Assembly (NCBI GenBank): GCA_001938485.1
Contig: MQRK01191981.1
Coordinates: 28,412 to 92,411, forward strand
Length of the DNA: 64,000 nt
Source: Girardia tigrina
Taxonomy: Eukaryota
Reading direction: 5' to 3'
How positions within the stretch are numbered: the stretch's first letter is position 1; each line of letters starts with the position of its first letter. Below, piece after piece: positions 59,821-60,853 of this stretch. The position numbers and the translations under genes were made by a program. The notes below the pieces were generated by a model. It was not told the DNA's origin, did no database searches, and was given only the letters and a program-made list of their open reading frames with translations.

Positions 59821-60853
59821 GTTTTATTTAAATTAAATTCATTTTTTGTTTTACCATTGTTAATATTATCGATATTCTTCATAGCTTTTTGAAAGAATGC
59901 TTTATCAATTTTTGGAGTTATTATCTTTTGTATACTGTTAACACTTTCTTCCTTTATAGCATTATTCTGATCATCATCATCAGTATCGTCAAGAACTCCT
60001 AACGGTTCAGTTTTTATTTCGAGTCCCTCATTTAATATATTATCATTTGAATTATTCAAAACATTATTATCAATCATATTATTAGTATTTCCAAATAAGA
60101 ATTCTTCATTAAAAAATACATGAATTTTATTTATTTCACCGTCTAATAAACCGTAATCATAGACATATTCTTCATCTTCCATTTCTTGATTTCGATACCA
60201 CAATTTAATCATTCCTGGTTTAACAATTATTTGTTTAACCTTTTCTCTTAATTTTTTGACTTTGATGCACCAATGTTCTATTACATGAACAACGTCTTTT
60301 CCTGGTATTCTAGTGCTAAAAATATTTTGGGTATAATTGTATTTTCTTTTCGATAATAACTTGCAAATTTCTTTAAAATTTTTTGAATTTTTAAACGAAA
60401 TCTTGTAATTTTATGTACTTGTGCTACTAAAATTGGCTTTAATAAGTGTATTAATCGTTCTGATACCACAAATTTATCAATCTCTTTTAGCAAATCAATA
60501 ATTTTTTCTTCATTACAAAAATCATGTCGAAGTTCCTTTATTAATCGTAATGTAACCTCTTTAATCTGAGTTTCAGTTTCTAATTCAAATTTCTTTTCAA
60601 CCTTCTTTTCTTGTATTTTAACTTCAACCGCATTAATTTGCGAAGGTAATATGCCATAATCGATTAAATATTCCTCTTTTTCCAATATTTGATTATTAAA
60701 TATTAAAGTAACATCTTCTATTTCTATTTTTGAAATTATAACATCCTTTAAATCTTTGACGGTACTATGTGGTGACAGTTCCACTGAAATAATTTCTTTA
60801 CCACAACTGCTAATTATAATTTGAAGTTTCTCGAGCATCAAGTTTTGTCTCAA
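59821..60853 (-). CDS. Polyprotein N-terminus: ubiquitin-like domain, helical TND/LEDGF-IBD-like domain, second ubiquitin-like domain (after a frameshift near 60320), N/D-rich linker
   Basis: Ubl1: ISVELSPHSTVKDLKDVI...LIFNNQILEKEEYLIDYGI. Ubl2: IKVKKLREKV...KLWYRNQEMEDEEYVYDYGL, in frame with the glycoprotein. Neither ends in GG. Confidence 0.7.

Follow-up and report, generated by a model that had tools for sequence, protein, structure and literature searches.

Retroelements can encode their own integration tethers, such as MLV p12, the foamy-virus Gag and the chromodomains of chromoviruses. In host proteins, TFIIS N-terminal domains (TNDs; PF08711) form a superfamily that includes the TFIIS LW domain, MED26, Elongin A, IWS1 and PNUTS. 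According to the accessible part of the TND review, these domains are non-catalytic readers of short TND-interacting motifs (TIMs) in elongation and chromatin factors, and its viral-mimicry section describes, within that part, only viruses that hijack host TNDs (PMC9987994). The integrase-binding domain (IBD; PF11467) of LEDGF/p75 (PSIP1) and HRP2 is represented by the structures 2b4j, 3f9k and 7z1z. Its integrase-interface residues comprise L363, I365, D366, L368, F406 and V408 (PMC5715112 and PMC2706977, accessible parts), with F406 named in the former and D366 required for integrase binding according to the latter. The accessible part of the latter study also reports that, when untethered from chromatin, the IBD acts as an inhibitor of integration, and that adding a minimal chromatin tether makes it a cofactor.

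The giant Gypsy elements Burro/GYPSM1 of planarians are described, in the accessible part of PMC6431247, as encoding in a single long ORF first Gag, the CCHC knuckles and a Ubi2/SUMO-like domain, next an in-frame mononegavirus-like Env that precedes the protease, and then reverse transcriptase, RNase H and integrase. Elements of this kind carry LTRs and are longer than about 25-30 kb in total. Gag-Env-Pol elements of Platyhelminthes are also covered in the accessible part of PMC13524379, and PMC11410931, in the part available, names Burro in passing only.

We analysed a 64-kb stretch of Girardia tigrina DNA (hereafter the window) in which an earlier note had described a LEDGF-like helix bundle encoded by a retroelement. 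The quoted helical peptide is present, in the minus-strand frame 60281-60886. The ubiquitin-like domain (UBL) at the start of this ORF, a second UBL and the frameshifted long polyprotein to which they belong went unnoticed in that note. This ORF represents one frameshifted part of a long Gag-Env-Pol polyprotein from a Burro-like giant Gypsy element, of which the window holds a truncated copy with the following parts.

60827..60922, minus strand: residual part of helical domain 1 (H1), found by blastn and tblastn against sister copies; H1 is whole in other copies
60617..60826, minus strand: first ubiquitin-like domain (UBL1), with Pfam ubiquitin (E 5.7e-6) and PDB ubiquitin matches
60317..60601, minus strand: second helical bundle (H2), with a TND / LEDGF-IBD fold predicted from sequence and structure searches
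60108..60316, minus strand: second ubiquitin-like domain (UBL2), with Pfam ubiquitin at E 0.091 in the window copy
59814..60107, minus strand: acidic spacer with two hydrophobic-K-x-E (SUMO-consensus-like) motifs, from a motif scan
59757..59813, minus strand: putative hydrophobic signal/anchor segment ahead of Env, from the sequence; the Pfam Monjiviricetes_fusion match starts there
59057..59756, minus strand: N-terminal part of a mononegavirus-like Env with stops and frameshifts, from Pfam and sister-copy comparison
57028..59056, minus strand: reverse transcriptase, RNase H and integrase zinc-binding domain, frameshifted (Pfam RVT_1, RT_RNaseH and Integrase_H2C2)
55121..57067, minus strand: integrase core and C-terminal part, followed by a 350-residue tail (Pfam rve, E 3.2e-8)
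53137..54747, minus strand: DEDDh-type exonuclease ORF in two frames (Pfam RNase_T, E 0.0017)

Similarity to sister copies ends at 60922 in blastn and tblastn, so the window copy is without Gag and zinc knuckles. Its H1 remnant has a frame shift near 60,87x, the frame changes again near the start of UBL2, and an internal deletion of roughly 2.9 kb after the N-terminal part of Env has removed the rest of Env and the protease. The signal/anchor segment is slightly below the hydropathy threshold applied. The tail that follows the integrase is conserved, with 40-93% identity among the integrase-flanking loci listed. In the window (55124-56182, minus strand) this tail opens with a hydrophobic segment, has about three beta-rich repeats that look fibronectin type III-like by eye, and has no Pfam match. 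The exonuclease ORF is probably an accessory gene of the element, and a homologue adjoins Gag in two other loci (L022 and L147). It lies downstream of Pol in the window but upstream of Gag in L022 (L022:1-840). The ORF may be located in the LTR; no LTR pair was found in the 64-kb window. The flanks (60923-64000 and 51811-52443) contain unrelated fragments: one resembles a phosphoribosyltransferase (61743-62384, Pfam E 0.14), one a RING domain (62432-62812) and one, by eye, a cytidylyltransferase (51811-52443).

Other copies encode a single polyprotein with Gag, three CCHC knuckles, H1-UBL1-H2-UBL2, the spacer, Env, protease and reverse transcriptase. Gag, knuckles, modules and Env share one frame in L022, and Env, protease and reverse transcriptase share one frame in L023. 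The Env class is PF24664 by Pfam. Searching the 1.43-Gb genome with the ORF gave 151 matches from the 150 scored among 2,629 candidates, and a search with H2 only found at least 150 copies (150 scored among 1,408 candidates). Contigs from four runs that are recorded or guessed as RNA, and are possibly DNA, cover 30, 23, 24 and 13 of the 30 bins of the stretch. Protein databases yielded a single relative of the same family (P0001), one 56-residue fragment (from 1.84 billion representatives) and one IBD relative. The H2 profiles are consequently built from copies of one genome, as the protein databases gave no further species for the alignment. This alignment contains 49 distinct segments without stops or Ns, taken from 80 loci and the window; seven duplicate loci were skipped and others were excluded for stops, Ns, truncation, identity or a missing H2. 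Apparent tandem duplicates of the module in L041, L052, L057 and L059 adjoin N-runs, look like assembly overlaps and were not counted.

H2 is under purifying selection, with a dN/dS of 0.23 compared with 0.30-0.32 for H1, UBL1 and UBL2 (17 distant pairs among 8 copies; the pairs are not independent). The earlier view that the domain is encoded by the retroelement itself is borne out by the multi-copy polyprotein, and the ratio of about 0.23 shows that the domain is conserved.

The unit that is repeated is a helix bundle followed by a ubiquitin-like domain, and it occurs twice in the window family, in the stretch that separates the zinc knuckles of Gag from the signal segment of Env. UBL1 matches Pfam ubiquitin at 26.5 bits (cut-off 25.4), and its C-terminus is without a di-glycine. 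For UBL2, the best Rad60-SLD stretch is residues 727-775 of the relative P0001. The Ubi2/SUMO-like domain before Env in the window family corresponds to PF00240 and PF11976. We examined twenty regions upstream of Env matches in sister families, of which only those reaching far enough are informative, and found a helix bundle and then a UBL in every env-bearing sister family examined. The close family L129 has a helical segment and then a UBL-like segment. One family group (L118, L122-L124 and L127) has one module, then an AT-hook-like motif and then a BH2-like domain, and the large families (L116, L117 and kin) have several modules. In the largest sister families (L116, L117, L120, L128, L130, L132 and L133), the open frame reaches up to 4,142 aa and up to five modules are apparent, two by profile, one by Pfam UBL and two by eye (weak scores).

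The modules are linked to each other by profile comparison. Alignment of family profiles with hhalign connects A1 with A7 (E 5.6e-5) and A7 with A6 (E 5.4e-4); the direct A1-A6 comparison is not significant (E 0.15) and H1-H2 is weak (E 0.0068). The second-module profile of the window family finds the sister-family module with an i-E of 1.4e-9, and leave-family-out profiles recover sister modules at 1.4e-9, 0.003 and 7e-5, in a test set of five ORFs and their reversals (10 sequences) in which the best reversed i-E is 0.03. The neighbours of a sister module in the ESM Atlas are weak UBL clusters.

The published 'BCL2-like' domain of Burro appears to be a different part of the polyprotein. We considered whether H2 is this motif and rejected it, given that in sister families the H2 homologue is accompanied by another domain, located further downstream, that bears the BH2-like motif. 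This motif is recognized by eye only, and BCL2 is not confirmed by Pfam. As the BCL2-like motif is missing from the spacer of the window family, we refer to the element as 'Burro-like'. An AT-hook-like core is found in 38 of the 248 sequences scanned, all of them sister-family loci (L121-L127, L134 and L136-L196), where it lies between the UBL and the BCL2-like region; the Pfam AT_hook match in L127 has an E-value of 0.095.

The likeness of H2 to LEDGF, as judged from sequence alone, is reproducible and below significance. Against the PDB, a phmmer search with the ORF finds the MLL1-LEDGF IBD fusion 2mtn at E 0.12 (residues 86-181), and the 49-copy H2 profile places 2mtn first among 7 matches (E 0.55, 83 positions), the first 56 positions being aligned without gaps. 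With the distant copy L052, LEDGF IBD constructs make up 8 of 11 rows (best E 0.59). Identity between H2 and LEDGF is 12-17%, the LEDGF-aligned core spans about 60347-60577 (minus strand), and no single search gave a significant match to LEDGF or a TND (E 0.1-0.6). Pfam LEDGF matches 2 of the 49 copies (best E 0.0095, 16 bits, cut-off 26.3), while the unrelated Pfam family UBA_E1_SCCH matches 10 of 49. Pfam Med26 is absent among the families listed for H2 copies (25 of 32), in these listings H2 has no match above the curated cut-off of PF08711 or PF11467, and genome searches with these two profiles did not return the element copies.

A template-free AlphaFold (AF2) model of H2 (pLDDT 80) has four DSSP helices, compared with five in a TND, with helices 3 and 4 fused. 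The predicted structure is a right-handed HEAT-pair-like bundle of the TND superfamily kind. In Foldseek, the LEDGF IBD occupies all of the top 10 of 178 rows with a probability of up to 0.97, and TFIIS LW domains rank below it; the best E-value is 0.12 and none is 0.001 or lower. Re-alignment with VIA to four LEDGF crystal or EM chains gives Z 9.7-10.1 and an rmsd of 1.6-1.8 Å over 75-76 residues, and the structure and sequence alignments have one register in common (model residue 9 = LEDGF 348). Foldseek also draws on sequence, so the two lines of evidence are not fully independent. An unbiased VIA search of 48,161 chains places TND/IBD chains in 10 of the top 50 rows (ranks 4, 7, 12, 13, 15, 21, 29, 34, 35 and 42). 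The lowest rmsd in this search belongs to the yeast LW domain (1.8 Å, 78 residues, Z 9.8), and three HEAT-solenoid chains stand above every TND but with an rmsd of 3.3-4.4 Å. Z values under about 13 are common for helical bundles according to the tool's own warning, and HEAT solenoids tie with TNDs on Z. We judge it likely that H2 has the TND (TFIIS-N) fold by descent. The LEDGF/TND fold put forward in the earlier note is supported by the AF2 model, for which the LEDGF IBD leads the Foldseek rows and superposes closely in VIA; the E-values are not significant and Pfam LEDGF stays below its cut-off.

The best-surviving alternative, which we regard as somewhat unlikely, is that H2 is a generic HEAT-like hairpin pair without TND ancestry, acting as a spacer or in some other binding, such as Gag assembly or contact with a cytoplasmic host protein. 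It agrees with E-values that are below significance in all searches, with the equal Z of HEAT solenoids and with the neighbours of H2 in the ESM Atlas, which are generic HEAT-like clusters only. The homologous domain of a sister family, modelled with a pLDDT of 92, does not single out TNDs either. It has no Foldseek signal, the yeast LW domain having the highest query TM-score listed (0.60) at rank 32, and in VIA its TNDs come only at ranks 15, 16, 21 and 38, tied with HEAT repeats (Z 6.1-6.7). Moreover, the LEDGF match is lost with the cross-family profile A5, and the profiles A6, A7 and A2, built from H1 and sister-family helices, match no TND. Against a generic pair, the LEDGF IBD comes first in profile and structure searches in one register and with an rmsd of 1.6-1.8 Å, another four-helix model has no LEDGF match, so that such a match is not given to any bundle, and the equivalents of D366 and F406 are conserved.

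This conservation is seen in an alignment in LEDGF numbering. Among the 49 H2 copies, the equivalent of K364 is K/R in 49, that of D366 is D/E in 47, that of F406 is F/Y in 49 and that of I359 is L in 49; L363 mostly corresponds to F/L. Other positions vary: the equivalent of I365 is C in 25, Y in 11, H in 6, N in 4, R in 2 and L in 1, that of V408 is S in 33, and those of I365, L368, K402, I403 and V408 differ by subfamily. The two-pocket and basic-patch positions of the TND, mapped by alignment only, are thus part fixed and part variable.

The earlier note had gone further and proposed that the element captured a TND/IBD. Aligned by hhalign to three partial host IBDs, the H2 profile reaches E 0.31. 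The two host IBD exons score no better than many of their shuffles (118 and 141 of 200 score as high; the host IBDs are partial, one exon), whereas for host MED26/TFIIS-type TNDs, on which the profile scores slightly better, only 1-9 of 200 shuffles do. In these comparisons H2 appears no nearer to the IBDs of the host than to the other TNDs of the host, and it does not qualify as a member of the LEDGF family. Because its profile fails to match either of the partial host IBDs, the data do not support a LEDGF IBD specifically, or its recent capture from the host. LEDGF-family IBD exons occur in two host genes (L081 and L082), and neither has an Asp at the D366 equivalent, by eye.

The functional reading goes beyond the fold and conservation of H2 and is inferred. 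We tentatively prefer to see H2 as a Gag-borne adaptor that would bind host TIM-bearing factors and tie the element's complex to transcribed chromatin. Engagement of host transcription factors, the other option raised in the earlier note, is plausible. The module block precedes the Env anchor, on the side of Gag, and so would probably stay cytosolic and particle-associated; it would be packaged with Gag or freed from Gag by the protease. It may then enter the nucleus. Hydrophobic-K-x-E is the SUMO consensus, and AT-hooks likewise have a consensus pattern. In the window, the two spacer motifs of the SUMO type are at about 60006-60017 and 59946-59957. At least one such motif is present in all 14 distinct spacers, which are otherwise variable, and their total of 27 compares with a mean of 4.0 and a maximum of 12 in 500 shuffles (the copies are related and not independent). 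Together with the AT-hook-like motif of sister families, these conserved motifs are hints of a nuclear location. In the nucleus, H2 may dock on IWS1, SPT6 or PAF1C subunits, which would tie the nucleoprotein complex of the element to transcribed chromatin.

Less probable than the generic pair is a decoy or disposal adaptor, in which TND and UBL would hand a TIM-bearing host factor to the proteasome or ubiquitin machinery, or a transactivator that would recruit elongation factors for a very long AT-rich provirus; we consider this unlikely. A UBL follows the TND-like domain in every module examined, domains related to apoptosis and ubiquitin abound in Burro elements (PMC6431247, accessible part), the variable pocket residues would fit an arms race, and modules are most numerous in the family whose ORF is longest. 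However, this relation between module number and size comprises three family types only, and the place of the module within the Gag precursor suggests a particle-associated role.

Least likely of all is that H2 binds the element's own integrase dimer in the manner of LEDGF and steers integration: the LEDGF IBD is the nearest structural match, the D366 and F406 equivalents are conserved, sister families have an AT-hook-like motif behind the module, much as AT-hooks accompany the IBD in LEDGF, and a minimal tether suffices to make an IBD a cofactor (PMC2706977, accessible part), but conservation does not extend to the I365 and V408 equivalents, a reference title describes the LEDGF-integrase interaction as lentivirus-specific, and a self-tether would not need tandem repetition with UBLs. 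Pfam found no PWWP in the window ORFs or in the 799-residue Gag-to-UBL2 relative P0001, and a motif scan found no AT-hook core in the window family. As the untethered IBD inhibits integration (PMC2706977, accessible part), this weighs against a self-integrase tether, which the earlier note had named as one option, and in favour of the host-factor adaptor. The FxGF motif is absent from the five family frames scanned, and the family therefore has no self-TIM of the LEDGF type. A complex prediction of H2 with two integrase NTD-CCD copies scored 0.00, with alignments unused and no controls folded, and was counted neither way. We thus rank the host-factor adaptor first, followed by the generic HEAT pair, the decoy, disposal or transactivator role and, finally, the self-tether.

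A broader proposal, more doubtful than the adaptor itself, is that Burro-like elements carry their own LEDGF substitute: one to five Gag-borne TND+UBL modules, some with an AT-hook, would tie the integration complex to transcribed chromatin via host elongation factors or the element's own integrase.

Elsewhere in the genome, 32 Med26-family matches were found, and none is in a Burro-like element among the 10 + 17 loci read. Intronless ORFs with a Med26-type TND and a RING finger occur in at least four places (L099:4113-5438, L103, L104:4225-5442 and L111; in L104, Pfam Med26 scores 23.4 bits against a cut-off of 20.6 and RING has E 8e-11), a predicted architecture that would be an unusual TND-E3 ligase. 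Multi-copy, apparently intronless Elongin-A-like ORFs are also present (L098, L100:1614-2882, L105-L107 and L113; L100 has a TND and an Elongin_A domain by Pfam), suggesting retro-copies or a mobile or viral carrier.

The element belongs to a known class; its TND-like + UBL module, conserved and repeated, had not been annotated before. In the literature searched, no retroelement polyprotein is described as containing a TND or IBD; Grohme et al. 2018 with its supplements and the Repbase entry may annotate further Burro domains. A viral structure library likewise gave no convincing match (best probability 0.35). LEDGF and TFIIS have no occurrences in the Burro review (PMC6431247) and are not mentioned in the accessible part of the 2026 errantivirus survey (PMC13524379). 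If the fold is confirmed, H2 would be the first retroelement-encoded TND, and would mirror the logic of HIV and LEDGF, with the element supplying the TND instead of hijacking that of the host. An element-encoded scaffold would also be a new route by which a retroelement gains access to the elongation machinery or rewires it. It would open to testing that half of the giant planarian Burro polyproteins which still lacks an explanation. Should the fold call fail, the repeated helix+UBL module would still stand as a newly defined feature of a known class of elements.

Compared with the IBD of LEDGF/p75 and HRP2, H2 has a like predicted fold (1.6-1.8 Å), register and equivalents of K364, D366 and F406; in contrast, it is encoded by a retroelement, has no PWWP, is flanked by UBLs, stays below the Pfam cut-off and varies at the equivalents of I365, L368 and V408. 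With the TND superfamily it shares the right-handed bundle, and one sister family also keeps an invariant Trp at the C-terminus; H2 has no Pfam Med26 match among the families listed, the model joins helices 3 and 4 into one, and TIM binding is putative. The polyprotein resembles Burro/GYPSM1 in its one long ORF, in its Gag, CCHC knuckles and Ubi2/SUMO-like domain, and in having a mononegavirus-like Env set in frame after Gag and before the protease, ahead of reverse transcriptase, RNase H and integrase (PMC6431247, accessible part). The window family has two helix+UBL modules; where it has only a 120-residue spacer, sister families contain an additional helical domain whose BH2-like motif is recognized by eye.

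With the tethers of MLV p12, foamy-virus Gag and chromoviruses, H2 would share the idea of a Gag- or Pol-borne link to chromatin. Those tethers use short motifs or chromodomains, whereas H2 is proposed to be a folded protein-interaction scaffold of host type.
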